IMG/VR virus record: IMGVR_UViG_3300045988_058378
Length of the DNA: 31,500 bases
Direction: 5' to 3' (one strand)
Source of the DNA: a virus
Each line of letters opens with the position of its first letter. The first letter of the stretch is position 1. Shown here in pieces: positions 190 through 31,500 of the stretch. A program made the position numbers and the translations under genes. The notes beneath the pieces were generated by a model that saw only the letters and a program-made list of their open reading frames with translations, searched no databases and had not been told where the DNA came from.

Positions 190-218
190 TTGCAATTTGT
201 CGAAATGTCGTGTATGCT
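190..218 (+). promoter_or_regulatory. Sigma-70/SigA-type promoter TTGCAA-17 nt-TATGCT driving a leaderless mRNA
   Basis: -35 TTGCAA at 190-195, a 17-nt spacer, -10 TATGCT at 213-218. The ATG at 226 lies only 7 nt after the -10 and has no Shine-Dalgarno sequence. Confidence 0.6.
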
Positions 219-2463: not shown

Positions 2464-3228
2464 GTCTTGAAATCATTGAAACGAACGTCGCTGACCTCGT
2501 ACCCTATGCGATGAATGCCAAACAGCACCCAGCCGAGCAGGTGGCGTAGATAGCGGCCAGTATCGAAGAGTTCGGCATGAATGACCCAGTGGCCGTGTGG
2601 CATGACGCGGACGGTGTGCCTATCATTGTGGAAGGGCATGGCCGAGTGTTGGCCTTGCAGAAGCTTAAGCGTAAGACGTGTCCAGTTATTTGTCTGGATG
2701 ATTTGTCTGACGCTCAACGTCGCGCCTATACGCTTGTCCATAATCAGCTGACACTTAATTCCGGGTTCGATATAGATATGCTTAACAGCGAATTAGCCCA
2801 GATTAAAACCGATTTACCCTCGCTTGATATGGGCCAATTCGATTTACGGATTAACGATGATACGCAGGATAACGTTTATACTGCGTAAAATCGATACGCC
2901 GGTGTATACACCACAATCCGATACCCCACCCGCTCTCTCCGCGCTATATGACCATTCTAAGACCGATGAACTTTTAACGTATATTAAAGCTAACATTAAA
3001 GATACTAAGTTGCGAAAATTCTTAACGCACGCGGCTTACCGGTTCACAGTCTTTAACTACGACCAAATAGCTGAATATTATTCACACCTACCACAAAACG
3101 AACGGAAGATTTTCGAAAAACTAACCCTCGTTATCGTCAATTACGATAATGCTATTGAAAATGGGTTTATTAAAATGACCAAGACTCTACAAGCGTTAGC
3201 AGAGGAAGCGTTAACCAATGAGGAATAG
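2460..3228 (+). pseudogene. ParB/Srx-like nuclease-domain protein with C-terminal extension; the reading frame is interrupted twice
   Basis: AAGGAG RBS and ATG at 2460. The translation MSLEIIETNVADLVPYAMNAKQHPAEQVA*IAASIEEFGMNDPVAVW...IIVEGHGRVLA follows the ParB N-terminal domain pattern. The in-frame TAG is at 2547-2549. At the TAA (2886-2888) the sequence continues in the +1 frame as KIDTPVYTPQ... through 3228. Confidence 0.6.
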
Positions 3229-4072
3229 TGCTGTTTTTATTCTCACTCGTAAACGTCCGTTTAATCAAAAAACATTTAAGACACTTAAACGACAACACTA
3301 TACCGGTAAAACGTATTTTCTTTTAGACGATACTGACCCAACAATATCCGACTATATTCATGAATACGGCGAACAAAACGTTAAAATATTCAACCGTGAA
3401 AAGGTAGCCGAATATACCGATAGTATGGACAATTTCACTCCGCGTACCGGCATCCTCTACCCTCGTCAATATTCCTACGAATTAGCGCGTGATTTAGGAA
3501 TTGATTATTTTCTTCAGCTCGATGACGATTATACGAGTTTTCAATATCGTTACCCGTCCAGCGGAAAACTTAAAGGGAGAGAATATTCCGACTTTGACAG
3601 AGTCTTTGAGACTTATTACGAAGCGTTGGATGATATACCGCTTTTAACCTGTGTTGCTTTCGCTCAAGGTGGTGACCTTGTGGGTGGGCAGATTAGGAAT
3701 CCGTTTAAACGTAAGGGGATGAACGGTATTTTCTGCAAGACAGATAGAATATAAGAGTTTAAGGGTACTATCAACGAAGACGTTAACGGTTACACGACGA
3801 ACCAGCAAACCGGCGCATTATGTATGACTTATTTAAATTCCATGCTTGTTCAAACGCAAACGCAGTCAGCTAGCGGCGGGATGACGGATATTTACGTTGA
3901 TAGTGGTACGTATGTCAAAAGTTTTTACAGTGTTATTGCTAATCCTGCGGCGGTTAAGGTTAGCGTATTATGTGATTATAGTGCCGATATTCCACGACCC
4001 CGGTTCCACCATAATTGTGTTCAAAATCATTACGCACCGAAGATTATACCTTCGGCGTGTTTGCCTGTCTGA
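3218..4072 (+). pseudogene. GT-A-like glycosyltransferase candidate (DxD motif LQLDDDY) split by an in-frame TAA
   Basis: Track ORFs 3218..3754 and 3824..4072 are in the same frame. They are separated only by the TAA at 3752-3754, and the codons between them are open. The second part has no RBS. Function is inferred from the N-terminal beta-strand plus DxD pattern only. Confidence 0.45.
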
Positions 4073-4176: not shown

Positions 4177-4261
4177 GGAACGTTGCGCGAGTGGTTTAAG
4201 CGGGCACCCTGCTAAGGTGCTAACTGGCAACGGTTCGGGGGTTCGAATCCCTCACGTTCCG
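4177..4261 (+). tRNA. tRNA-Ser (anticodon GCU), type II with long variable arm
   Basis: Hand fold: acceptor GGAACGT/ACGTTCC; anticodon stem GCACC/GGTGC with loop CTGCTAA; variable arm AACTG-GCAA-CGGTT; T arm GGGGG-TTCGAAT-CCCTC. Confidence 0.85.
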
Positions 4262-4447
4262 CAATCCTAACGTGAGCCTAGGATAAGCGTTAGGCGGTTG
4301 AGTACACTACTCTTGCAGTGACTCAGACGAAATATAAAAGGGCGGCTAGAGAGCATGGCCGATAGTGAGGTAACATGTGCTCTCCGGTCAACGGTTGGCG
4401 GTCGATAGGATTGCGGCGGTAACCTGCTAAAGTCCAAGCTAACCAAT
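4262..4447 (+). ncRNA. Structured inter-tRNA spacer (candidate ncRNA or processing element)
   Basis: Long-range helix CCGCAATCCT (4259-4268) with AGGATTGCGG (4407-4416). It encloses hairpins CCTAACG/CGTTAGG (4266-4294), TGAGT..ACTCA (4299-4325) and GAGAGCA/TGCTCTC (4349-4384). No tRNA cloverleaf could be fitted. Confidence 0.25.
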
Positions 4448-4519
4448 TTTCCCGTGGTGTAATAGGTAGCACGGCAGTCTTTGGAACTGCTTGTTTTGGT
4501 TCGAGTCCAGACGGGAGAG
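4448..4519 (+). tRNA. tRNA-Gln (anticodon UUG)
   Basis: Hand fold: acceptor TTTCCCG/CGGGAGA; D arm GTGT-AATAGGTA-GCAC; anticodon stem GCAGT/ACTGC with loop CTTTGGA; T arm TTTGG-TTCGAGT-CCAGA. Confidence 0.8.
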
Positions 4520-4558
4520 CGGAACATAATAGGAGCATGCGCCTATTATGTCATTGCT

Positions 4559-22437: not shown

Positions 22438-22599
22438 TCATTTTGTTTCCTCCCTTGGTTGGAATGATGCGACTTGTTCGCCTTCATCGTCAAAAATGGT
22501 TGCGGTTTCTCCGTGTTCCACTGTTTTTCTTGCCATGGCTACGGCTTGGCTGAATGTGACGCATACATAATCGACACCGTTGAATCTTACTGTATACAT
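22438..22599 (-). CDS. Hypothetical protein, 53 aa
   Basis: Own translation: MYTVRFNGVDYVCVTFSQAVAMARKTVEHGETATIFDDEGEQVASFQPREETK. GAAAGGA RBS. First gene after hairpin H1. Below the track cutoff. Confidence 0.5.
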   Translation of the reverse strand: MYTVRFNGVDYVCVTFSQAVAMARKTVEHGETATIFDDEGEQVASFQPREETK

Positions 22600-22624
22600 G
22601 TTTTATTCCTTTCGTTAGTTGTGT

Positions 22625-22642
22625 CCCGCCCTTGCGGACGGG
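22625..22642 (-). promoter_or_regulatory. Intercistronic GC-rich hairpin H1 (minus sense CCCGUCC-GCAA-GGGCGGG)
   Basis: 7-bp stem with a GNRA loop. The U-G wobble is valid only in minus-sense RNA. It sits between the stop at 22651 and the ATG at 22599. Confidence 0.6.
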
Positions 22643-22650
22643 GCTGTTGT

Positions 22651-22899
22651 TTAAAGATATTTTATTTCTGCCTCGTAGACTGCGCACTGGTCTAATCCTT
22701 GATGCCATGTGAAATCGTCTACAAGACAGACTCGGCCGAACGTGAAATTTTCGTCGCGCTTGAGGATGTTGCGCATGTTTGCCAATTGGTTTTTAAATTC
22801 CACTGCTTCGCTGTGGAAATCGTAGACTTCTCCGGTTTCTTTTATTACGAGACGTTGTGTGCAGATGCGATAGCTGAGGTAGATGATTGCGGTGGCCAT
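22651..22899 (-). CDS. Hypothetical protein, 82 aa (first ORF of module 1)
   Basis: Track ORF. The ATG is preceded by the cassette SD GAAAGGA. Confidence 0.65.
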   Translation of the reverse strand: MATAIIYLSYRICTQRLVIKETGEVYDFHSEAVEFKNQLANMRNILKRDENFTFGRVCLVDDFTWHQGLDQCAVYEAEIKYL

Positions 22900-22966
22900 T
22901 TTGGTTTGTCCTTTCTTATCGGTTGGTAATTACATAATACATCATTGTTGAGTACGACACGCCGAA
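22900..22966 (-). promoter_or_regulatory. Class-II promoter/5'UTR cassette C1
   Basis: Minus sense: TTCGGCGTGTCG-N15-TATTAT-GTAATTACC-...-GAAAGGA-N9-ATG. Near-identical to C4 and C5. Confidence 0.6.
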
Positions 22967-23232
22967 CGTTCGACAAACACGCCCCAGCACATAGGAATTT
23001 TCAGCGGCACCAACCGGGACACGCGATAGTCAGCGCCATAACGCACTTCAGCAAGCCGAGCAATAACCGCGTGCGCTCTCTCCCTTGCTTCGGCAATCCG
23101 CTTGCCATAGCCACGCTTGCGCTTCTGCCAACCGTCGCTAGTCCTCTCATATACCTCCCATACGACACCGTTTTCCGAATAATGAGACTGCACGCGATAA
23201 TCGTAAGCGTCAACGTTCCTATATTTCACCAT
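22942..23232 (-). CDS. Hypothetical protein, 96 aa
   Basis: AAGGGGG RBS. The C-terminal residues SACRTQQ are encoded by cassette C1. Confidence 0.6.
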   Translation of the reverse strand: MVKYRNVDAYDYRVQSHYSENGVVWEVYERTSDGWQKRKRGYGKRIAEARERAHAVIARLAEVRYGADYRVSRLVPLKIPMCWGVFVERSACRTQQ

Positions 23233-23242
23233 ATCCCCCTTT

Positions 23243-23572
23243 TTAGTACATTTCCGCGATGTGTCGAGTGAACGCGCATACGCTGACTGCCGTCATATAG
23301 CCGCGTAATCCCGTCTTCCTCGCCATGAGAAGCCACACGGGGAAAGTGATGAATGGTGCGAGACACCAACCACATGTAGCGAGATTACGCAGACTGAAGG
23401 CTTGCAGTGCTTCGCGTCTCTGCCCCTTCGTTTCGTACTGCGTTTCGACTGTGTTGAGAGCGTCTAACCATACTCTGCGCGCATTCTTTAAGGACATGCC
23501 GAAACCGTCCGTTGTCTGGATGCAAGTATTGAGGTACCCGGCGACTAGTCCGGCCTGCACTGCCTTGTTCAT
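23243..23572 (-). CDS. Hypothetical protein, 109 aa (hydrophobic C-terminus)
   Basis: ATG at 23572 (MNKAVQAGLV...), coupled to the upstream stop by ATGA. The longer track ORF 23243..23845 overlaps other genes. Confidence 0.5.
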   Translation of the reverse strand: MNKAVQAGLVAGYLNTCIQTTDGFGMSLKNARRVWLDALNTVETQYETKGQRREALQAFSLRNLATCGWCLAPFITFPVWLLMARKTGLRGYMTAVSVCAFTRHIAEMY

Positions 23573-23715
23573 TTCTTTGCTCCTTTGCGGTAGACGTAGA
23601 GTGCCGCCAGCATGCACGCGACACCGATAATATTGATGAAGTTCATGTTTTCGTTCGCGGATAATACGATTCCGAAGAGAAAGAGTATTGCCACGAAGCC
23701 GTCGTTTTTGTTCAT
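23569..23715 (-). CDS. Small membrane protein, 48 aa
   Basis: MNKNDGFVAILFLFGIVLSANENMNFINIIGVACMLAALYVYRKGAKK has two hydrophobic helices. GAAAGGA RBS after hairpin H2. Confidence 0.5.
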   Translation of the reverse strand: MNKNDGFVAILFLFGIVLSANENMNFINIIGVACMLAALYVYRKGAKK

Positions 23716-23972
23716 TGCTGGTTCCTTTCGATTGGCGCCCCGCCCTTGCGGGCGGGGCGGGGGGGGCATTCTCCGATGATTTCCGCAAACTTGTCGGTGA
23801 GCCACTTGAGGTATTCTTTTCTGGTGTTAAACTTGCCTTGTGCATGTTCGGTACCGTTCCACCATGCTCCCGTGGTGTTCTCGTTCCACTATGTTTCGAC
23901 GTTTACCGTGCCGTCTTCGTTGGTGGTGGCCTTGATGTTGTATCCCTTGAAGCAGTTGGTTTCGGTGTTCAT
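23712..23972 (-). CDS. Hypothetical protein (first ORF of module 2) carrying an in-frame TAG
   Basis: Own translation from the cassette ATG at 23972: MNTETNCFKGYNIKATTNEDGTVNVET*WNENTTGAWWNGTEHAQGKFNTRKEYLKWLTDKFAEIIGE... The TAG is at 23889-23891. The frame stays open for 58 more codons and ends in a TGA overlapping the next ATG. Confidence 0.45.
23737..23758 (-). promoter_or_regulatory. GC-rich hairpin H2 (GCCCCGCCC-GCAA-GGGCGGGGC)
   Basis: Perfect 9-bp stem with a GNRA loop, about 20 nt upstream of the ATG at 23715. Confidence 0.6.
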
Positions 23973-24035
23973 TTTGTTTGTCCTTTCTTTGTTTGGTAAT
24001 TACATAATACACTACTTGTGTACACGACACGCCGA
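23973..24035 (-). promoter_or_regulatory. Class-II promoter/5'UTR cassette C2
   Basis: Minus sense: TTCGGCGTGTCG-N15-TATTAT-GTAATTACC-AAACAAAGAAAGGACAAACAAA-ATG. Confidence 0.6.
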
Positions 24036-24078
24036 AAAATAAAAAAAGGGAATCTACAAAATTTCTTCGTAGATTCCC
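24035..24078 (-). terminator. Canonical rho-independent terminator (minus strand)
   Basis: 10-bp stem GGGAATCTAC/GTAGATTCCC followed on the minus strand by TTTTTTTATTTTT. It lies just after the stop at 24086. Confidence 0.8.
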
Positions 24079-24085
24079 TGAATTT

Positions 24086-24367
24086 TCATCGACTGCAATA
24101 CGCTAAGCACTGCACCTCAAGCGCATCCACATGACGGTAGCACACTCCATCAAACACGAAAAAAGGCGCGGTAGAATACTTGTGAGCCTTTCGCAAAGTC
24201 CAGTAACGACTGTTACCCGGCTGAACTACCATGAGAGCAACCATAACGCCCGTTTTCTTCTTGATTCGCACCACCATTTTTCGTAGTCCGTCAATCAATT
24301 CCCGGTGCTTGCATCCCGCGCAATCATCGAAAACCGCGTAAATGACACGTCTTGAAATGCTCACCAA
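24086..24367 (-). CDS. Thioredoxin/glutaredoxin-fold protein candidate (CAGC redox motif)
   Basis: VIYAVFDDCAGCKH...TAPFFVFDG resembles NrdH/Grx-like architecture. TTG or GTG start overlapping the upstream stop. Confidence 0.4.
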   Translation of the reverse strand: MVSISRRVIYAVFDDCAGCKHRELIDGLRKMVVRIKKKTGVMVALMVVQPGNSRYWTLRKAHKYSTAPFFVFDGVCYRHVDALEVQCLAYCSR

Positions 24368-25245
24368 TCCACACCTCCCAGTTTTTGCAGTCCGTCAATG
24401 AGTGCCAATGTCTGCAATTCCTTTGTCTCCTGCGCTTCGATTTCACTTGCAACGCTCTGCCGTTCCACCGCGAACACCTCATGTTGCAGACTGCCATACA
24501 CCCTATCATCTAACATAGTGAAATACACCGTGTGCAAGTCAGGGTTGACGACAAAATACTGAAGCACTTGAGACTGATACTGCTCCGGAATGAAGTCGAA
24601 CTCCCGACGCGTTTCCAGAATCTCCGGGAACAACTTGAGGGCCAACGACTGCAATTCATTCCGCTGACTATCCGGAGTTTCCGAATAGTTGAGCATCTGG
24701 TATACGCGGAATGGAACAACCGTTTGAAGATGGTATTTCGTTCCCAGACTTTTCGCTTCGAATGCGAACGTGGGATTATGTTCCAGCCCGTTAAAGATTC
24801 GCGGTTTGGCGTGAGCGTCAGGACTGACCGCAATTCGGTCATCCACGTCACTTACCCACATTCCCGTGTTAAACTCAACTACGTTAGGCGAAATGTCGAA
24901 TTTTTCGCACGCCATCATGATATTAGTGTTTTCCAAACGGTGACCGCGTTCCATTGGCGGTTCCCCGTCCGGCTGTTCCGCAATCATATCAGCGAGGAAC
25001 TGCCAAAAATCAAGGTTGACTTTCAACCGTTCGTTATCTCGTTTTGCTTGCCGTGCCTTCTCTCGGTATTCTTCGGCCTTTTCTTCGGTCTTTGCCTTGT
25101 CTGCCATGGCTTCGAGTTTGGCTACGTCCTTTTGGGCGTAATGTTCGAGCGCGAGTGTTCCGGCTTTGGTGCCCGTGATTTTACCAATTCGCGCGTCCAA
25201 CCATGCTTCAGTGTCCTGCGCTTGAGAAACGTTCAGAATCTTCAT
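24361..25245 (-). CDS. YqaJ/lambda-Exo-like PD-(D/E)XK recombination exonuclease
   Basis: N-terminal QDTEAWLDARIGKITGTKAG (YqaJ signature). Catalytic-type SPD...FEAKS motifs. A coiled-coil insert is present. Confidence 0.7.
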   Translation of the reverse strand: MKILNVSQAQDTEAWLDARIGKITGTKAGTLALEHYAQKDVAKLEAMADKAKTEEKAEEYREKARQAKRDNERLKVNLDFWQFLADMIAEQPDGEPPMERGHRLENTNIMMACEKFDISPNVVEFNTGMWVSDVDDRIAVSPDAHAKPRIFNGLEHNPTFAFEAKSLGTKYHLQTVVPFRVYQMLNYSETPDSQRNELQSLALKLFPEILETRREFDFIPEQYQSQVLQYFVVNPDLHTVYFTMLDDRVYGSLQHEVFAVERQSVASEIEAQETKELQTLALIDGLQKLGGVDW

Positions 25246-25246
25246 T

Positions 25247-25654
25247 TTAGTTTTCCTTTCTTACCGGTAATCCGTTTTCCGTTGTTGCGAGCATGTATGA
25301 TTTCAGTAGTGTGTCCGCTATTTTTTGCCGTCGTGCGGGCGGGATGCGTCTGAGGTTGGTTTCCCAGTGCGCGACTTGGCATTGGCGTACACCGTACATT
25401 TTTGCTATTTCACGTTGGCTGATGCCGAACGCGTTGCGCAAATATTTCAACAATTCGCTATCATCCAAAGAGTCAAGATAAGTATTTCGACTGTTGACGG
25501 TGCGGAGATTGTTTTCGTGGTCGAGCGTGAATAGATTGCCGTTTTTTGACTGGATAAGGTAGGCGTAAACGTCTTCCTTAATTCGGTATTCTCGCTCTCC
25601 GGCGACGGTTTTGAATGTGATGGGCATGGCTTCCGGCCATAGTGTGAGTCTCAT
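25247..25654 (-). CDS. DNA-binding protein with C-terminal XRE-type HTH
   Basis: LRNAFGISQREIAKMYGVRQCQVAHWETNLRRIP is a classic HTH_3 pattern. GAGAGAGGA RBS. Confidence 0.6.
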   Translation of the reverse strand: MRLTLWPEAMPITFKTVAGEREYRIKEDVYAYLIQSKNGNLFTLDHENNLRTVNSRNTYLDSLDDSELLKYLRNAFGISQREIAKMYGVRQCQVAHWETNLRRIPPARRQKIADTLLKSYMLATTENGLPVRKEN

Positions 25655-25666
25655 TTATCCTCTCTC

Positions 25667-25933
25667 TCACGCAATCTCTTCATCATAGAAGACGTATGCG
25701 ATTCCGTTGACAGTGTTGAATTTTCCCTGCACAACGTCTTTGTGAATTGTCGGTTCGATTTCAGCCAAGTAGAGCAAGTCTAGTGCGTCTTCTCTTGAAT
25801 TTGGGTAGATTGCGATTTGTGGCGTGTAGTCTTTTAGTTCAATGTCCGGTGAGTCTTCAGCCACTTCGTCGAGCTTGGTTAGTGTCTCTTTGAGGAATGT
25901 GACGTATTGGGTGAGGGTTATTGTATCTTCCAT
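25667..25933 (-). CDS. Highly acidic hypothetical protein, 88 aa
   Basis: 19 Asp/Glu versus 6 Lys/Arg by direct count. First gene after hairpin H3. Confidence 0.6.
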   Translation of the reverse strand: MEDTITLTQYVTFLKETLTKLDEVAEDSPDIELKDYTPQIAIYPNSREDALDLLYLAEIEPTIHKDVVQGKFNTVNGIAYVFYDEEIA

Positions 25934-25955
25934 TATTGTTCCTTTGGTTAGGGGT

Positions 25956-25977
25956 GCCCCGCCCTTGCGGGCGGGGC
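25956..25977 (-). promoter_or_regulatory. GC-rich hairpin H3 (GCCCCGCCC-GCAA-GGGCGGGGC)
   Basis: Perfect 9-bp stem with a GNRA loop, between the stop at 25989 and the ATG at 25933. Confidence 0.6.
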
Positions 25978-25988
25978 TGTGGTTTGGT

Positions 25989-26183
25989 TTAGAGTGCGTG
26001 TTCCTTGAGCAGTTCGGTGAATTCGTCGGGGTCTACCTGCTCATAATCGGTGTAGCCGTTCATGTCGCAGATGTCGCGGAGGTCTTTCGCGGCTCCGTAG
26101 GTATTCCAATCGCCGTCATCCTGCCCGCTGTTTTGAAGGTAGTTGACGATGTAGGTTTCTGCTGTGCTGAGGTTGATTTCCAT
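25989..26183 (-). CDS. Highly acidic hypothetical protein, 64 aa (first ORF of module 3)
   Basis: 15 Asp/Glu versus 3 Lys/Arg by direct count. The ATG is preceded by the cassette SD. Confidence 0.6.
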   Translation of the reverse strand: MEINLSTAETYIVNYLQNSGQDDGDWNTYGAAKDLRDICDMNGYTDYEQVDPDEFTELLKEHAL

Positions 26184-26246
26184 TTTGTTTGTCCTTTCTT
26201 TGTTTGGTAATTACATAATACAACAGTTTTGGTTACGACACGCCGG
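26184..26246 (-). promoter_or_regulatory. Class-II promoter/5'UTR cassette C3
   Basis: Minus sense: CCGGCGTGTCG-N15-TATTAT-GTAATTACC-AAACAAAGAAAGGACAAACAAA-ATG. Confidence 0.6.
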
Positions 26247-26247
26247 A

Positions 26248-26415
26248 CTAGAGATAATCCATGACAACGAAACCAATACCCGCCAAACCAATAAGGATGT
26301 TAGCCAATGCGAGAAGAATCATAAGGCTATCCTCGCATTGAAATGCCACTCCCAAAGCGACAGCGGCCACAATCGTAAGCACTAAGAAGACACAGAATAT
26401 AGCAACCTTTTTCAC
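26248..26415 (-). CDS. Small two-helix membrane protein, 55 aa
   Basis: Own translation: (GTG)KKVAIFCVFLVLTIVAAVALGVAFQCEDSLMILLALANILIGLAGIGFVVMDYL. The GTG overlaps the ERF TGA, and AAGGGTGG lies 6 nt upstream. Confidence 0.45.
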   Translation of the reverse strand: MKKVAIFCVFLVLTIVAAVALGVAFQCEDSLMILLALANILIGLAGIGFVVMDYL

Positions 26416-27005
26416 TTATTGCCACCCTTGTTGATAGCCTGACGGAGAAGCATAACGTCATGCTCGGTCAAGTCCTGAGGCTTACGCACCTCATGGCCGA
26501 ACTGTGATGCCAGAGCGCTGACGTAGAAGCCCAGATTTGTTCCAGCGGCCTGAGCCATATCGTTAAGTTCGTTGACTTCTTGTGCCGTGGCCTTACGTGG
26601 TTGCTTTGGGGTGGAATAGTCGCGCATGGCGGCACCGTCGTCGTCCTTGTCTGGGAAGATACCAAGGGCGGCGTAGAGGGAGTAGCGGCGCGCGTAGGTT
26701 ACTGCGGAGCCGATTGCCTGAGGGTCGGGCACCACAATGAATGGATAGTCGCCCACGTTCAGGGTTTTTTCGGCGTCGAAAATGATTGTTTCTACCGTAC
26801 CGTAGCTCATTTTGTCGCCTACCGTGCCCATGCGTACCACCTGCCGGAATGCCAAGTCATACTTGGCAAAAATAGGCTTGATGGTTTTGAGAATGGTAGC
26901 AAGATTAAGGTACTTGTAGGTGCGTTGTCCAGCGTTGGCTGTCAGGTCGGTGACGAAGTTGGGGACTTCGTTGAGGACTGCCATATATTTTTCTTCGAGT
27001 TTCAT
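26412..27005 (-). CDS. ERF-family single-strand annealing protein
   Basis: YLNLATILKTIKPIFAKYDL...QAIGSAVTYARRYSLYAALGI is the ERF core signature. Confidence 0.8.
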   Translation of the reverse strand: MKLEEKYMAVLNEVPNFVTDLTANAGQRTYKYLNLATILKTIKPIFAKYDLAFRQVVRMGTVGDKMSYGTVETIIFDAEKTLNVGDYPFIVVPDPQAIGSAVTYARRYSLYAALGIFPDKDDDGAAMRDYSTPKQPRKATAQEVNELNDMAQAAGTNLGFYVSALASQFGHEVRKPQDLTEHDVMLLRQAINKGGNK

Positions 27006-27028
27006 TATTGTTTCCTTTAATTAATGGT

Positions 27029-27050
27029 GCCCCACCCGCGTGGGCGGGGC
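27029..27050 (-). promoter_or_regulatory. GC-rich hairpin H4 (GCCCCGCCC-ACGC-GGGUGGGGC)
   Basis: 9-bp stem whose G-U pair exists only in minus-sense RNA. It lies between the stop at 27061 and the ATG at 27005. Confidence 0.6.
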
Positions 27051-27060
27051 TGGATGTCGT

Positions 27061-27360
27061 TTATAATGCGTTTTCGGGGAGGGTGTCGAGGTAGTCTATC
27101 GCATCGTACATTCCTTCGGTGGTGTATGGGAAAAGCTTCTCATAGCAGTGACTAGAATAGTGTTGGCCGCGCTTGCGGTAATCCCTGCGAAGTTCTTCGT
27201 CGGTCTTGGCGACTTCCCAGTGAACGCGAATTACTCGATGTATGTTTCCCTTGCGGGTAGTGTACACGTCAAGATTTTTAGTGATGTAGAGCTTCTTCTT
27301 GGGGCCCATCATGTTATCGAAGATTTCGAAGAGGTTGAAGCGGAGGTTTTCGGTGGTCAT
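27061..27360 (-). CDS. Hypothetical protein, 99 aa (first ORF of module 4)
   Basis: Track ORF. The ATG is preceded by the cassette SD. Confidence 0.65.
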   Translation of the reverse strand: MTTENLRFNLFEIFDNMMGPKKKLYITKNLDVYTTRKGNIHRVIRVHWEVAKTDEELRRDYRKRGQHYSSHCYEKLFPYTTEGMYDAIDYLDTLPENAL

Positions 27361-27424
27361 TTTGGTTTGTCCTTTCTTGGTTGGTAATTACATAATACAT
27401 CATTGTTGAGTGCGACACGCCGAA
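27361..27424 (-). promoter_or_regulatory. Class-II promoter/5'UTR cassette C4
   Basis: Minus sense: TTCGGCGTGTCG-N15-TATTAT-GTAATTACC-AACCAAGAAAGGACAAACCAAA-ATG. Confidence 0.6.
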
Positions 27425-27843
27425 CTAGGCAGAATCTCACCCAAACGACTCAACCCACGCGCGCTATCAAGCCCACGGAACCGTTTAGCGGACTGTGCGG
27501 CTTCATCGAGACTACGCCCGCTCAACCTATTCCGCCGATACTCCCAACTCGCCTCACCCTCAATACCCAGTGCGCGCATTTCACGCGTAATGTCGGCTTC
27601 GGAAGGCTTATGGTCACGTTTCCACTTGGCCCAAAAGCTGTTAACGTCGGCGGGCATGAGATACGGCCGCTTCTTCGCATATTCCGGGCTTGCGAAAAAT
27701 TGGCGTATGGCTTCTTTCGCCACGTCCAATCGCATGTCAGTGGCTAACGCTTCCATCCATGCGGCCACCTGCATATCGGTCACAAGACGGTTATCAAAGG
27801 CGCTGGCATAAGTTAGTAGTGCTTGCACTTGCAGTTTATTCAT
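27400..27843 (-). CDS. Hypothetical protein, 147 aa
   Basis: AAGGAA RBS. The ATG at 27843 overlaps the upstream gene by 8 nt. The C-terminal SACRTQQ is encoded by cassette C4. Confidence 0.6.
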   Translation of the reverse strand: MNKLQVQALLTYASAFDNRLVTDMQVAAWMEALATDMRLDVAKEAIRQFFASPEYAKKRPYLMPADVNSFWAKWKRDHKPSEADITREMRALGIEGEASWEYRRNRLSGRSLDEAAQSAKRFRGLDSARGLSRLGEILPSSACRTQQ

Positions 27844-28252
27844 TTCTCGATTCCTTGAATTCAAGTTGCATTAATTTCACGACTTTCAACATGCCGTCCA
27901 AGTCACTTTTTCTAAGGTACAGCCAGAAGAGACCTTCCGTATAGGTGGTGGCTTGGCGGGCAAGGTCTAGCATGGTATCCATGTAGAGACAGCACTTCCC
28001 CACTTGCTTGAGATTGTGTGCGTCCAAGGGTTCGCCATCAATTTCCATGTGGCATTTCTCCCCATTGTCGATAGCCTTCCGCAGATACCATTCCGCTTTC
28101 TGCAAGTCCTCCAATGGGCGCCCCTTAAGCCGGTACCGCCACACGTATTTTATGGCGTTGCCTACGCAAAAACTGTGATATTGCGCGACTTCAATGCATT
28201 CGCAAGGTTTCGTATCGTCAGTGTAGTGTGCTGGATGATTGATATTGCCCAT
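27836..28252 (-). CDS. DUF3310-family protein
   Basis: INHPAHYT...CECIEVAQ...GNAIKYVWRYRLKGRPLEDLQKAEWYL matches my recollection of the DUF3310 signature. Confidence 0.6.
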   Translation of the reverse strand: MGNINHPAHYTDDTKPCECIEVAQYHSFCVGNAIKYVWRYRLKGRPLEDLQKAEWYLRKAIDNGEKCHMEIDGEPLDAHNLKQVGKCCLYMDTMLDLARQATTYTEGLFWLYLRKSDLDGMLKVVKLMQLEFKESRNE

Positions 28253-28263
28253 GAGTGTTTCCC

Positions 28264-28671
28264 TTAGAAGTTTGGTGTGATTGAGTCCAGAAAATCGTCA
28301 AGGTAAAGTATGTAGTCTTCTTGGGCGGAATCGTGCGCCTGTGTCTGGTAGTCACCGTGTTGCCATTGAATTCCGCTTGAGAATTTCAGCCGACTGATTC
28401 CAGCGAGATATACGAGTATCGTATTGTGGACTTTATCAGTCGTCCAGTCTGAGGGAGCTACAACGTCCAGCATGTAGGTTTTAGATTGTGCACCGCTTCT
28501 CTGCCGGTTTTCTAAGCCTTTCCATGCTGACAGCCATACGCGATAGCGGACTATTTTGGGATTGTCTTGCACGGTCACGGCTGTCTCGAATATGGCAGTG
28601 TCCTTGTCTTTGTCGCATTCCACGACAGAATGCATGTCATATGGTGGAATGTCGCTGAATAGTGTCAACAT
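28264..28671 (-). CDS. Hypothetical protein, 135 aa
   Basis: ATG at 28671 (MLTLFSDIPP...) with a GGAAGGGAA RBS. First gene after hairpin H5. Confidence 0.55.
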   Translation of the reverse strand: MLTLFSDIPPYDMHSVVECDKDKDTAIFETAVTVQDNPKIVRYRVWLSAWKGLENRQRSGAQSKTYMLDVVAPSDWTTDKVHNTILVYLAGISRLKFSSGIQWQHGDYQTQAHDSAQEDYILYLDDFLDSITPNF

Positions 28672-28694
28672 TATGAGTTCCCTTCCAATTGGGT

Positions 28695-28716
28695 GCCCCA
28701 CCCTTGCGGGTGGAGC
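28695..28716 (-). promoter_or_regulatory. GC-rich hairpin H5 (GCUCCACCC-GCAA-GGGUGGGGC)
   Basis: 9-bp stem with a U-G pair valid only in minus-sense RNA, and a GNRA loop. It lies between the stop at 28726 and the ATG at 28671. Confidence 0.6.
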
Positions 28717-28725
28717 AGGTGTTTT

Positions 28726-28986
28726 TCATGCTTTGCGTTCGTAAACGTCTACGTCATAGCCACCTTCAGTGGTGTAGTCTGGCTTGAATTTGCCGAGCCG
28801 GTAGCCTCGTTTGAGCATTTCAAGTCGGAGGGTGAATAGGATGCCTCCCACACGGTTCAGGTTTTCAATGTCGAAGTTGATTCCGTTATCGATGTTGCGG
28901 ACGTGTGCGGTTGCGTTTTCTTCGTCGATGATGACGTATGCGTCACAGATGTATTCGCCTTGGTTGTACGGCTGGAGTTTAACCAT
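28726..28986 (-). CDS. Hypothetical protein, 86 aa (first ORF of module 5)
   Basis: Cassette ATG at 28986 (MVKLQPYNQG...). The longer track ORF would run through the promoter and terminator. Confidence 0.6.
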   Translation of the reverse strand: MVKLQPYNQGEYICDAYVIIDEENATAHVRNIDNGINFDIENLNRVGGILFTLRLEMLKRGYRLGKFKPDYTTEGGYDVDVYERKA

Positions 28987-29050
28987 TTTAGATTCCTTTC
29001 TTATCGGTTGGTAATTACATAATACATCATTGTTGAGTACGACACGCCGG
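28987..29050 (-). promoter_or_regulatory. Class-II promoter/5'UTR cassette C5
   Basis: Minus sense: CCGGCGTGTCG-N15-TATTAT-GTAATTACC-AACCGATAAGAAAGGAATCTAAA-ATG. Confidence 0.6.
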
Positions 29051-29088
29051 AAAACAGAAAATGCCCGCCGAAACAAATCAGCGGGCAT
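29051..29088 (-). terminator. Rho-independent terminator (minus strand) after the paralog triplet
   Basis: ATGCCCGC/GCGGGCAT stem followed on the minus strand by TTTCTGTTTT. Confidence 0.7.
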
Positions 29089-29102
29089 AATGAGAATCAT
29101 TA

Positions 29103-29522
29103 TCAATAGGCGAACTTGACCGGCACTAGCGGGAGCGCCCCAGCACCAAACGTCGAGATAACAAGAGGCCATGTAACATGTAACGCGGATGATCCATCGC
29201 TCCAAACACGGTTTAGCGGCTCAGTCCCATACTTTCCGTCATCAAGAGTAGGACGGCGCACACTCCAATCACCTGCTCCGTCACTGTAGAGCAGTGTGCC
29301 GGTCTGGGTGATGTAATAGCCCTCCTCTGTTGGCATTTCCTGCATTGTCCTCATATTTTCTGGGAAACGATAATTGAGTGCGTCTTGCAATGCTTTCATC
29401 TCGTTTTCATCCCGGAACCTTAGCACGACATTCCACCCGTCTTCCGTCGTAGTGGCGGCCAAGTCTCGCAATGAGTTGATAACAATAGATTCCGGATTTG
29501 TATACGCTGTGACCTTAATCAT
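29103..29522 (-). CDS. Paralog family member C, 139 aa, unknown function
   Basis: Shares L-x-x-L-N-x-x-FPEN, EEGYY-x-TQTG-LL, DWSVR and a C-terminal PL-x-V motif with the two upstream genes. Confidence 0.7.
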   Translation of the reverse strand: MIKVTAYTNPESIVINSLRDLAATTTEDGWNVVLRFRDENEMKALQDALNYRFPENMRTMQEMPTEEGYYITQTGTLLYSDGAGDWSVRRPTLDDGKYGTEPLNRVWSDGSSALHVTWPLVISTFGAGALPLVPVKFAY

Positions 29523-29532
29523 TTTTGTCCTT

Positions 29533-29982
29533 TCACTGATAAATTGGGGTGACGCTCACACGAGTCAGCGGGAACGCCTTGGCGCCAAGCTTCTTAATTA
29601 CCTTGAGCCAATCGGTCTCGTAATCGTCGTTTTCTCCCAGCCAATTACAATGCGCTGGGCTGGTATATGGGTCTCCCTCGTCGTATGCTCTGATACTCCA
29701 ATCGCCTTCCGTATCCTTGCATAGAAGTAGTCCGGTGGAGGTAAGGTATAGGCCTTCTTCTTCGGGCTCCTTGAATTTCTTGTCAAGTTTGATATTTTCC
29801 GGGAAAATATTGTTTAATCCGTCTTGGAGTGCCTGTAAATCTTCCGTGGAGTAAAACCCAATGTCCAAACACCTTGTATGGTCTTGGTTGAGTCGTTCGT
29901 CTATGGATGCCGATTTAACGCCATCGATACGTAGGCTGTTGATGCCATTCTCGTAAGCGTAACGGGATACTGTGATAATCAT
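29533..29982 (-). CDS. Paralog family member B, 149 aa, unknown function
   Basis: AAAGGA RBS before the ATG at 29982. Motifs LNNIFPEN, EEGLYLTSTGLLL, DWSIR and FPLTRV. Confidence 0.7.
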   Translation of the reverse strand: MIITVSRYAYENGINSLRIDGVKSASIDERLNQDHTRCLDIGFYSTEDLQALQDGLNNIFPENIKLDKKFKEPEEEGLYLTSTGLLLCKDTEGDWSIRAYDEGDPYTSPAHCNWLGENDDYETDWLKVIKKLGAKAFPLTRVSVTPIYQ

Positions 29983-29993
29983 TTTTTGTCCTT

Positions 29994-30410
29994 TCATTCT
30001 GAAAATGGGGTAATGTTTACACGAGTTAGTGGCAGTGCGACTTTAGTTAATTTTTCGATGACATTTTGCCATTTCTCGTTGATTAAATGTAAGTGTGTTG
30101 GGTCCCATGCCAAGTATGGTGTAGTTGAGTCTTTGAATCGTATGACGCTCCACCCCCATTCATCTTTTAAGAGCAGTATTCCAGTTTGCGAGAGGTAATA
30201 CCCTTCTTCTTTTGGTTCTCTGAATTTTTCGTCTACGGTGACGTTTTCGGGGAAAAGATTATTTAACTCGTTTTGGAATTCTTTCAAATCGTCCAAGTTG
30301 CTGAATTGCAGTCGCACGGTGTTCGTGGGATTGCATTTGCCTCGTTTTACTCCGTGAATGGTCAGTGTTTCGCAGTCTGCGAATGATTGGTGGCTTACTT
30401 TTATTGACAT
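29994..30410 (-). CDS. Paralog family member A, 138 aa, unknown function
   Basis: AAAGGGG RBS. Motifs LNNLFPEN, EEGYYLSQTGILLL, WSVIR and LPLTRV. Confidence 0.7.
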   Translation of the reverse strand: MSIKVSHQSFADCETLTIHGVKRGKCNPTNTVRLQFSNLDDLKEFQNELNNLFPENVTVDEKFREPKEEGYYLSQTGILLLKDEWGWSVIRFKDSTTPYLAWDPTHLHLINEKWQNVIEKLTKVALPLTRVNITPFSE

Positions 30411-30477
30411 TTCATGCCCCTTTCATTGGTTGGCCTCACATTATCGATTATATATGATTACGGACGCGACACGCCGG
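30411..30477 (-). promoter_or_regulatory. Divergent class-II promoter cassette C6
   Basis: Minus sense: CCGGCGTGTCG-N14-TATAAT-CGAT... then AAAGGGG-N6-ATG. The box overlaps the last codons of the replication gene (SGVSRP*). Confidence 0.5.
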
Positions 30478-31235: not shown

Positions 31236-31264
31236 ACTATAACACAAGATTGACGACGTTGCAA
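31236..31264 (-). promoter_or_regulatory. Sigma-70/SigA-type promoter TTGCAA-17 nt-TATAGT driving a leaderless rep mRNA
   Basis: Minus sense: -35 at 31264-31259 and -10 at 31241-31236. The ATG at 31228 is 7 nt downstream, with no SD. Confidence 0.6.
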
Positions 31265-31292
31265 AATTTTTTCTTTTAGTATTTTCTTTTTC

Positions 31293-31339
31293 TTACTATG
31301 GTTATACTTCCATTGGTTATTTTTACTATGGTTATACTT
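31293..31339. repeat. AT-rich region with two 17-bp direct repeats TTACTATGGTTATACTT (candidate DNA unwinding or accessory binding element)
   Basis: Copies at 31293-31309 and 31323-31339, with a third TGGTTAT between them. They lie between the rep promoter and the iteron array. Confidence 0.6.
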
Positions 31340-31343
31340 ATCC

Positions 31344-31500
31344 CTGCATGTGGTGCAGGGTAGTACTGCATGTGGTGCAGGGTAGTACTGCATGTGGTGC
31401 AGGGTAGTACTGCATGTGGTGCAGGGTAGTACTGCATGTGGTGCAGGGTAGTACTGCATGTGGTGCAGGGTAGTACTGCATGTGGTGCAGGGTAGTACTG
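31344..31500. repeat. Second view of the 22-bp iteron array (7.1 copies), identical to 1-157
   Basis: Units start at 31344, 31366, 31388, 31410, 31432, 31454 and 31476. Confidence 0.95.

Follow-up and report, generated by a model that had tools for sequence, protein, structure and literature searches.

Why does the early arm of a 31-kb phage genome open five of its gene blocks with the same short stretch of DNA, and why does each copy stand ahead of one small open reading frame (ORF) and a GC-rich hairpin? The question is raised by IMG/VR virus record IMGVR_UViG_3300045988_058378, a 31,500-nucleotide (nt) stretch of viral DNA that was analysed over its whole length (the window) and that carries, on the minus strand between 22.4 and 30.5 kb, five copies of a promoter-like cassette, each of about 65 bp and each heading an early gene block. 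As a genomic pattern, the succession of cassette, leader ORF and hairpin is well supported. As to its meaning, we lean slightly toward a reading in which the five units are reiterated heads of early transcription units, the hairpins are leaky elements of RNA 3'-end formation or stability, and the repeated borders are crossover sites.

A first-pass annotation of the window had proposed the five minus-strand cassettes, and all of them are found where it had put them:

28987-29050, minus strand, cassette C5: box CGGCGTGTCG at 29040-29049, a 15-nt spacer, TATTAT at 29019-29024 and the palindrome GTAATTAC at 29011-29018; the remainder is an A/C-rich 5' untranslated region (UTR) with a Shine-Dalgarno sequence (SD), and the ATG lies at 28986
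27361-27424, minus strand, cassette C4: box at 27413-27422, 18-mer core at 27381-27398
26184-26246, minus strand, cassette C3: box at 26236-26245, core at 26204-26221
23973-24035, minus strand, cassette C2: box at 24025-24034, core at 23993-24010
22900-22966, minus strand, cassette C1: box at 22955-22964, core at 22923-22940

The core is an exact 18-mer, GTATTATGTAATTACCAA, present in five copies, all on the minus strand (at 22923, 23993, 26204, 27381 and 29008), against a chance expectation of about 0.01 copies even with three mismatches allowed. The box CGGCGTGTCG has six exact copies, every one again on the minus strand. Alignment extends the conservation to about 65 bp, from the box to the ATG, and C1 and C5 are 100% identical across 56 nt. 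When IMG/VR was scanned with the 18-mer, it returned 48 stretches from about 27 contigs of about 30 kb. In these related viral loci 131 cassette units were found with the order of their parts kept: cassette, one ORF of 59-115 amino acids (aa), its stop codon, 6-19 nt, the hairpin, approximately 20-25 nt, and then the SD and ATG of the next gene. A scan with a hairpin 25-mer recovered the same phage clade plus a few extra members, and nothing beyond it.

Comparison of 96 unique cassettes resolves the conserved stretch into distinct parts. The box is invariant, as is TATTATGTAATTACCAA; between the box and TATTAT the spacer measures 15 nt in 131 of 133 cassettes, its sequence being free except for A..T..TG; and the last 24 nt or so before the ATG are A/C-rich, contain 2% T and carry GAAAGGA. 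This alternation of conserved, variable and conserved segments at fixed spacing has, we infer, the look of a bipartite promoter. The TATTAT -10 hexamer is likewise invariant, and the -35 position is occupied by GCGTGT (one of six matches to the consensus), which is not TTGACA-like and for that reason was not called by a consensus promoter scan. Since canonical promoters of the form TTGCAA-17-TATNNT do occur elsewhere in the window, flanking the origin repeats, the putative box promoters form a distinct class, perhaps a factor-dependent one. The perfect palindrome GTAATTAC, directly after the -10, is present in the five cassettes only and could be an operator for one of the phage's HTH proteins. 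Rfam searches, by gathering threshold and by E-value, returned no known RNA family at the cassettes or the hairpins.

Immediately downstream of each cassette lies a leader ORF:

28726-28986, minus strand, leader ORF Ld5 (behind C5): 86 aa, no Pfam or PHROG family, C3/(C3+T3) of 0.82
27061-27360, minus strand, leader ORF Ld4 (behind C4): 99 aa, homologues in this clade of ~30-kb phages only
25989-26183, minus strand, leader ORF Ld1 (behind C3): 64 aa, acidic, no family, no PDB sequence match
23766-23972, minus strand, leader Ld2 (behind C2): a pseudogene here, with TAG at 23891-23889 (codon 28, TGG in relatives)
22651-22899, minus strand, leader ORF Ld3 (behind C1): 82 aa, no family, no PDB sequence match

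The proposal of one small ORF per cassette thus stands for Ld5, Ld4, Ld1 and Ld3 and falls for the 86-aa ORF read behind C2: besides the in-frame TAG, this frame has lost its natural TGA stop through a mutation next to a poly-C run, so that it continues through the hairpin H2. In relatives Ld2 is an intact ORF of 68 aa that ends 7-8 nt ahead of the hairpin. The leader ORFs matched nothing in Pfam, PHROGs or PDB sequences, and a Foldseek search with an AlphaFold2 model of Ld4 (pLDDT 70) found no significant PDB neighbour (best E = 0.7).

What sets the leaders apart is their codon usage. Their preference for C-ending over T-ending codons, expressed as C3/(C3+T3), is the strongest in the early arm, at 0.75-0.89, where the other early genes have a median of about 0.66 (Mann-Whitney p = 0.0012), and it reaches 0.37-0.44 in the last gene of units that run into a downstream cassette or terminator. 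With host codon usage assumed, such a bias fits high expression in a GC-rich host and suggests that a leader may be a highly expressed takeover or accessory protein. Within units C5, C4, C3 and C2 we also observe that the preference drops from about 0.8 to about 0.4 from the promoter-proximal to the last gene, with T content rising alongside.

Behind each leader stands a hairpin:

28695-28716, minus strand, hairpin H5: 9-10 bp stem, GCAA loop, no U-tract, 8 nt past the leader stop
27029-27050, minus strand, hairpin H4: 9 bp stem, ACGC loop, 10 nt past the stop; the ERF gene starts at 27005
25956-25977, minus strand, hairpin H3: 9 bp stem, GCAA loop, 11 nt past the stop
23737-23758, minus strand, hairpin H2: 9-10 bp stem, GCAA loop
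22623-22644, minus strand, hairpin H1: 7-bp core stem, GCAA loop, -14.5 kcal/mol

All five GC-rich hairpins had been recognized in the first pass, with a GCAA loop in four and ACGC in H4, and both their places and their loops agree with what we find. They share the 9-bp consensus GCCCCGCCC-GCAA-GGGCGGGGC and have free energies of -14.5 to -26 kcal/mol. The stop codon plus 45 nt was folded for all 24 genes of the early arm, and strong structure (-14.5 kcal/mol or lower) appeared only after the five leaders and at three operon-end terminators, the remaining genes giving values weaker than -9 kcal/mol. Among the relatives, the 45 nt after the leader stop fold at -12 kcal/mol or lower in 114 of the 121 units that could be scored.

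A canonical intrinsic (L-shaped) terminator has a U-tract right after its hairpin, and the leader hairpins have none: across 98 unique sequences their 3' flank is A/C-rich and almost devoid of T, with the consensus CACC-A-n-TAA-n-GAAAGGAAC. The genes that follow have no cassette of their own and no room for a promoter, and the hairpins must therefore pass a good share of transcription. Identities proposed for these downstream genes hold for DUF3310, ERF, HTH_3 (a 135-aa protein, 25247-25654), the YqaJ exonuclease and HNH, the last being the third gene after H1 and not the first, as had been supposed; no family support was found for the genes labelled 'Trx-like' and 'membrane'.

The early arm does contain hairpins of the canonical kind, together with a sixth copy of the box:

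30411-30477, minus strand, sixth promoter variant, diverged: box CGGCGTGTCG at 30467-30476 and TATAAT at 30447-30452, upstream of the ATG at 30410; no GTAATTAC palindrome
29061-29088, minus strand, canonical intrinsic terminator (hairpin and T-run): ends the paralogue operon, directly upstream of C5
24047-24079, minus strand, canonical intrinsic terminator (hairpin and T-run): after a 92-aa gene, directly upstream of C2
21850-21885, minus strand, terminator hairpin GCCGCAC...GTGCGGC followed by TTTAT: after HNH, at the end of the early arm

The module had been described as five-fold; five full units are indeed present, and to them must be added this sixth promoter variant, which heads three tandem paralogues (30410-29103, minus strand) and comes with neither leader ORF nor hairpin. 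The paralogues, of 138, 149 and 139 aa, match no family and are closed by a canonical terminator. In one related locus (L080) the paralogue block is absent and the sixth box is fused to a remnant of the terminator. Operon ends carry hairpins with T-runs and leaders are followed by hairpins without them; the phage thus appears to keep canonical terminators for points at which transcripts are meant to end, and to place another kind of element behind its leaders. The term 'attenuator', in the sense of conditional termination, is not borne out, as neither internal terminators nor an antiterminator were found.

The relatives show that the place behind the leader can be filled by other structures. 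Loops vary among GCAA, ACGC, ACAA, ACAC and GTAA, and are mostly of GNRA type. One further leader family, Ld8, has an unrelated 8-bp GC hairpin at the same position, and behind two others, Ld6 and Ld9, the GC hairpin is replaced by a pseudoknot-like element, for example GCGG-C-GGAGG-CAA-CCGC-ACAAA-CCTCC, in which a 4-bp stem is interleaved with a 5-bp stem. Three or four variants of this element have compensatory changes in both stems (GCGG/CCGC versus GGGG/CCCC in one, and GGAGG/CCTCC versus GGGGG/CCCCC versus GGCGG/CCGCC in the other). It was located at the following sites in related loci:

L007, 5893-5925: pseudoknot-like element
L046, 1593-1625: pseudoknot-like element
L080, around 1289, minus strand: pseudoknot-like element
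L016, 7037-7065: pseudoknot-like element
L018, 1767-1795: pseudoknot-like element

Because Ld8 has an unrelated hairpin at this position and Ld6 and Ld9 a pseudoknot-like element, these comparisons argue that structure itself is selected behind the leader, at the level of RNA. Within the GC hairpins themselves, 94.5% of cells retain their pairing, and in three pairs both sides have changed.

The second property of the units that emerges from the relatives is that their contents move. Ten leader families and eight next-gene families occur in the related loci. In most units the pairing follows synteny (Ld5 with the hypothetical 135-aa gene, Ld4 with ERF, Ld1 with an 88-aa gene, Ld2 with a 48-aa gene and Ld3 with a 53-aa gene), and about 19 units have a non-canonical pairing: Ld3, Ld7, Ld2, Ld1 or Ld6 before ERF; Ld4, Ld2 or Ld6 before the 135-aa gene; and Ld7 before the 53-aa gene. 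Tandem double units are also present. The junctions can be placed. On the hairpin side, sequence up to and through the 5' arm tracks the leader, and the 3' arm and SD region track the downstream gene. On the cassette side, the spacer variant stays with the slot while the ORF changes, and the crossover must therefore lie in the -10/UTR segment. On these alignments, leader ORFs are shown to have been exchanged between slots by crossovers inside the -10/UTR segment of the cassette and inside the hairpin. The first-pass suggestion of a modular recombination scaffold is thereby upheld, the same leader families standing before different downstream genes with junctions inside cassette and hairpin; relatives in IMG/VR do carry both elements at module borders with different cargo. 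Among the phage's predicted proteins are an Erf annealase and a YqaJ exonuclease, and enzymes of this kind can use such short homologies.

These observations can be assembled into a mechanism. The 65-bp cassette would serve as promoter plus translation leader, with the box, at about -37 to -28, standing where a canonical -35 would be, followed by the free 15-nt spacer, the TATTAT -10, the palindrome around +1, and an A/C-rich, structure-free 5' UTR with a strong SD. The box, the palindrome or both would bind phage regulators. Each cassette would drive one small, lineage-restricted leader ORF, and the hairpin behind it would be a leaky former of 3' ends, through pausing or partial termination of RNA polymerase, through a block to 3' exonucleases, or through both; a short, abundant leader mRNA would accumulate, and read-through transcripts would feed the downstream replication and recombination genes. 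Leader ORFans (ORFs with no known family) are swapped between slots and between genomes at the repeated borders, which serve as crossover sites because they are repeated five to six times per genome, and the Erf and YqaJ genes of the phage are plausible catalysts.

More tentatively, and with distinctly less conviction, we consider that the whole may amount to a compact, integron-like platform of five fixed docking slots, each bordered on one side by a common promoter/UTR segment and on the other by a common RNA hairpin. Once short-homology recombination through Erf/YqaJ had placed an ORFan there, that ORFan would immediately be over-expressed from a short early mRNA stabilised by the hairpin, the core operon behind the slot would be undisturbed, and a single phage factor could act through the box and the +1 palindrome to turn all slots on or off together.

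Several points weigh against the reading of the units as early transcription heads with leaky hairpins. That the cassettes are active promoters, where transcripts start and whether 3' ends form at the hairpins are predictions from sequence. The non-canonical -35 region means that the cassettes may need some extra factor, and no sigma factor or RNA polymerase gene that could be that factor was found among the annotated ORFs. The samples behind the codon-bias figures are short ORFs. Covariation in the hairpin is thin, the element being almost invariant, and its conservation could be explained by concerted evolution through recombination, with no need for an RNA function. The G.U pairs in H1, H4 and H5 were dropped as evidence for a sense RNA, as the unique hairpins contain 12 G.T and 13 C.A cases, which is uninformative. 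Finally, the assignment of the host (below) is indirect.

Some of these points feed a competing account, that the borders are pure recombination linkers, in which the cassette is a promoter and the hairpin has no RNA role, being kept as a homology patch or as a DNA structure that targets ORFan exchange. Crossovers do map within the hairpin, which is almost invariant and covaries little; the wobble test does not favour either strand; and there is a precedent in the GGGG...CCCC stem-loops of the promoter-early stem-loop (PeSL) cassettes (PMC2839356). We nevertheless think it unlikely, since behind other leader families this position is taken by stable structures of other kinds, among them a pseudoknot-like fold that is meaningful in RNA only, since placement is tightly kept at 6-19 nt past the stop and 8-12 nt ahead of the next SD, and since pairing of -20 kcal/mol is not needed for homology alone.

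Carrying about the same low probability is the idea that the hairpin works on the RNA downstream of it, the polycistronic transcript being cut just upstream so that the hairpin caps the downstream mRNA against 5'-end-dependent decay by RNase E or RNase J. Actinobacteria possess both enzymes; the 5' flank of the hairpin is A/C-rich and single-stranded; and the short distance from hairpin to SD and ATG is conserved (8-12 nt before the SD), with the motif GGGGCACC after the stem. Such stabilisation leaves unexplained why the hairpin sits in the first intercistronic gap of each unit only.

It is improbable that the hairpins are instead terminators for antisense, plus-strand transcription, shielding early promoters and leaders from convergent read-through out of the late operon. 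Three of the five pass a permissive plus-strand filter, with the T-rich tails TGTGGTTTGG, TGTTGTTTAA and TGTTTTTCAT, and the sense-strand 5' flank is A-rich; against this, H2 and H4 have no T-tail, the plus-strand bases after the stem are mostly G (sense -2 is C in 81% of sequences) and make a poor U-tract, a convergent terminator is already present at about 21.85-21.9 kb, and the placement after every leader ORF is unexplained. Slightly more improbable still are processive antitermination sites of nut or put type, at which the hairpin RNA, alone or with a phage protein, would modify RNA polymerase to pass downstream terminators: the layout of promoter, small first ORF, RNA hairpin and genes resembles pR-cro-nutR of lambdoid phages, and most loops are GNRA-type (GCAA), but there are no terminators inside the units to be passed (canonical ones stand at operon ends only, followed by a fresh promoter), loop sequences vary through the five types listed above, and no boxA-like element, no N/Q-like gene among annotated ORFs and no Rfam match was found.

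Among described systems the nearest counterpart comes from T4-type myoviruses, in the form of their PeSL cassettes (Arbiol et al. 2010, PMC2839356; Comeau et al. 2014, PMC4122927). A PeSL is a single composite element within one intergenic gap, its stem-loop lies between or overlaps the -35 and -10, this stem-loop has been shown to terminate efficiently, mini-circles arise, and crossovers have been mapped between the -10 and the SD and in the stem-loop (PMC2839356; PMC4122927). In both systems a conserved strong-promoter motif (here predicted) and a GC-rich stem-loop of GGGG...CCCC type are present in many copies; in both they are associated with ORFans, the leaders here having no Pfam or PHROG family, Ld4 being limited to the clade and ten leader families alternating at the slots; and in both, the flanked ORFs are reshuffled, gained or lost when copies recombine. 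The units described here are nonetheless not PeSLs. Their promoter and stem-loop are split around a cargo ORF of 64-99 aa, the hairpin being followed by an SD and a gene with no promoter; the stem-loop directly precedes promoter-less core genes and hence must be leaky; there are only five to six copies, each at a fixed slot, and the phage is a 31-kb siphovirus with a Gram-positive host; and a specific 10-bp box takes the place of the -35. The PeSL analogy drawn in the first-pass annotation is therefore apt in the sense of 'works like' and does not extend to membership, promoter and stem-loop here not being one composite intergenic element.

The morons of lambdoid phages are units of promoter, gene and terminator (Juhala/Hendrix, as summarised in PMC2839356). 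Our units likewise consist of a promoter, a small accessory gene and a hairpin, self-contained between core genes and unlike their neighbours in composition (functions here being predicted), and the foreign Ld8 unit brings its own distinct hairpin. Unlike morons, whose flanks are unrelated, whose expression typically comes from the prophage and which as a rule are transcriptionally insulated, all units here share their flanks, sit in a lytic early arm and would also feed downstream genes by read-through. Lambda nutR and HK022 putR likewise follow a promoter-proximal small ORF and precede the main gene block, and they too are short GC hairpins whose loops are mostly of GNRA type; here there are five copies versus two, loops vary, and the internal terminators, the boxA and the N/Q homologue are missing. 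A lambda-type nut or HK022 put site consists of conserved boxA and boxB with a fixed loop, downstream terminators and a cognate factor, a combination that the units do not have.

The cassette alone invites two further comparisons. T4 middle promoters combine a MotA box at -30 with a sigma70 -10. A review of them is available (PMC2988021). They resemble the cassette in that a good -10 hexamer is accompanied, in place of the -35, by a conserved element specific to the phage, and differ from it in that no MotA- or AsiA-like genes were detected here; the box could equally be a repressor site. Short, asymmetric, orientation-specific motifs repeated by gene starts are also known from actinobacteriophages. 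The start-associated sequences (SAS) of cluster K are motifs of about 13 bp at the ribosome-binding sites of many genes genome-wide, with no promoter or hairpin, and the stoperators of cluster A are repressor sites of temperate phages. The SAS parallel drawn earlier proves weak, the element here being 65 bp long, containing a -10 and an upstream box, and standing at five unit heads only.

Literature searches found no identical, previously described layout; what they brought up were the PeSL papers and a study of the B. breve transcriptome. Reiterated early promoters, moron-like units and shuffling mediated by regulatory cassettes are all already known, and these modules do not open a new category or class of mechanism. 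They offer a clean natural case, outside T4-like phages and in a phage of a Gram-positive gut host, in which regulatory borders appear to double as recombination borders for ORFan exchange, and about 130 comparable units are already available in metagenomes. The five small proteins per genome are the likeliest candidates for host-takeover or anti-defence factors made early and at a high level; should the leader ORFans be such proteins, gut Bifidobacterium phages would have in this arrangement a dedicated means of turning over their counter-defence genes rapidly. The cassettes are also candidate strong promoter and 5' UTR parts, and the hairpins candidate insulators or stabilisers, for Bifidobacterium genetics, where such parts are few.

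The host is probably Bifidobacterium, because the large terminase subunit (TerL) shares 52% identity with its counterparts in two Bifidobacterium asteroides phages and because named homologues of the GH25-CW_7-LysM endolysin (46-48% identity) lie in chromosomes of B. longum, B. scardovii and Bifidobacterium sp. The nearest cultured phages, BlindBasel1 and BlindUri1, have no repeated cassettes or hairpins, only unique intergenic hairpins. Megablast of the early arm against INPHARED phages gave zero matches, and no near-identical phage was found in GenBank. Two other leads to the host were set aside. A scan of GTDB genomes with the 18-mer gave 22 single matches in unrelated taxa, approximately the number expected by chance on our own estimate, and indicated no prophage or host. 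Contigs of this phage clade that are filed within metagenome-assembled genomes labelled 'Acutalibacteraceae bacterium', one of 29.9 kb with a 95%-identical endolysin and one of 18 kb with the 18-mer, are probably mis-binned. Short metagenomic contigs that begin inside the cassette were likewise rejected as transcript ends, being assembly breaks at the repeat.

The window represents a complete phage genome of about 31.3 kb in circularly permuted form: its ends match (1-157 equals 31344-31500) in a perfect 22-bp tandem repeat, CTGCATGTGGTGCAGGGTAGTA, of 7.1 copies. This array, which sits between a divergent rep gene (an O/DnaD-like replication initiator) and the plus-arm genes, is probably an iteron-type origin. 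The repeat has an inverted repeat of its own and the array is flanked by 158-223 and 31278-31343; its copy number is uncertain, as the contig cut falls inside it. Two canonical promoters diverge from the array, TTGCAA-17-TATAGT at 31236-31264 (minus strand) and TTGCAA-17-TATGCT at 190-218 (plus strand). The second stops 7 nt before ATG 226 of a 57-aa HTH_17 protein (226-399), whose mRNA would therefore be leaderless; leaderless mRNAs are common in Actinobacteria. The phage is apparently a small siphovirus with a lytic lifestyle. Integrase genes, like those for sigma factors and RNA polymerase, were not detected among the annotated ORFs of the window, and no immunity repressor was seen in it. 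One relative (L073/L074; ENA ERZ1761048 contig_8494, 59.7 kb) was assembled as a head-to-tail dimer of a genome of about 29.9 kb, whose two copies differ by apparent frameshifts, likely reflecting long-read concatemer assembly; it has DNA methylase genes, which the window does not.

The plus-strand arm encodes the HTH_17 protein, SSB, RusA, a ParB-like protein, a TET-associated glycosyltransferase (TAGT, PF20691) and two tRNAs, followed by terminase, structural and lysis genes. The ParB-like nuclease-domain gene is apparently split into ORFs at 2577-2888 and 2824-3228 (plus strand), as is the TAGT gene, at 3218-3754 and 3824-4072 (plus strand). This stretch, 2577-4072, has a low GC content (0.40) and could be a DNA hypermodification module or consist of pseudogenes or frameshifted genes; no TET/JBP gene was recognised. 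The two tRNA genes, for tRNA-Ser(GCT) at 4177-4262 and tRNA-Gln(TTG) at 4448-4520 (plus strand), lie upstream of the terminase gene.

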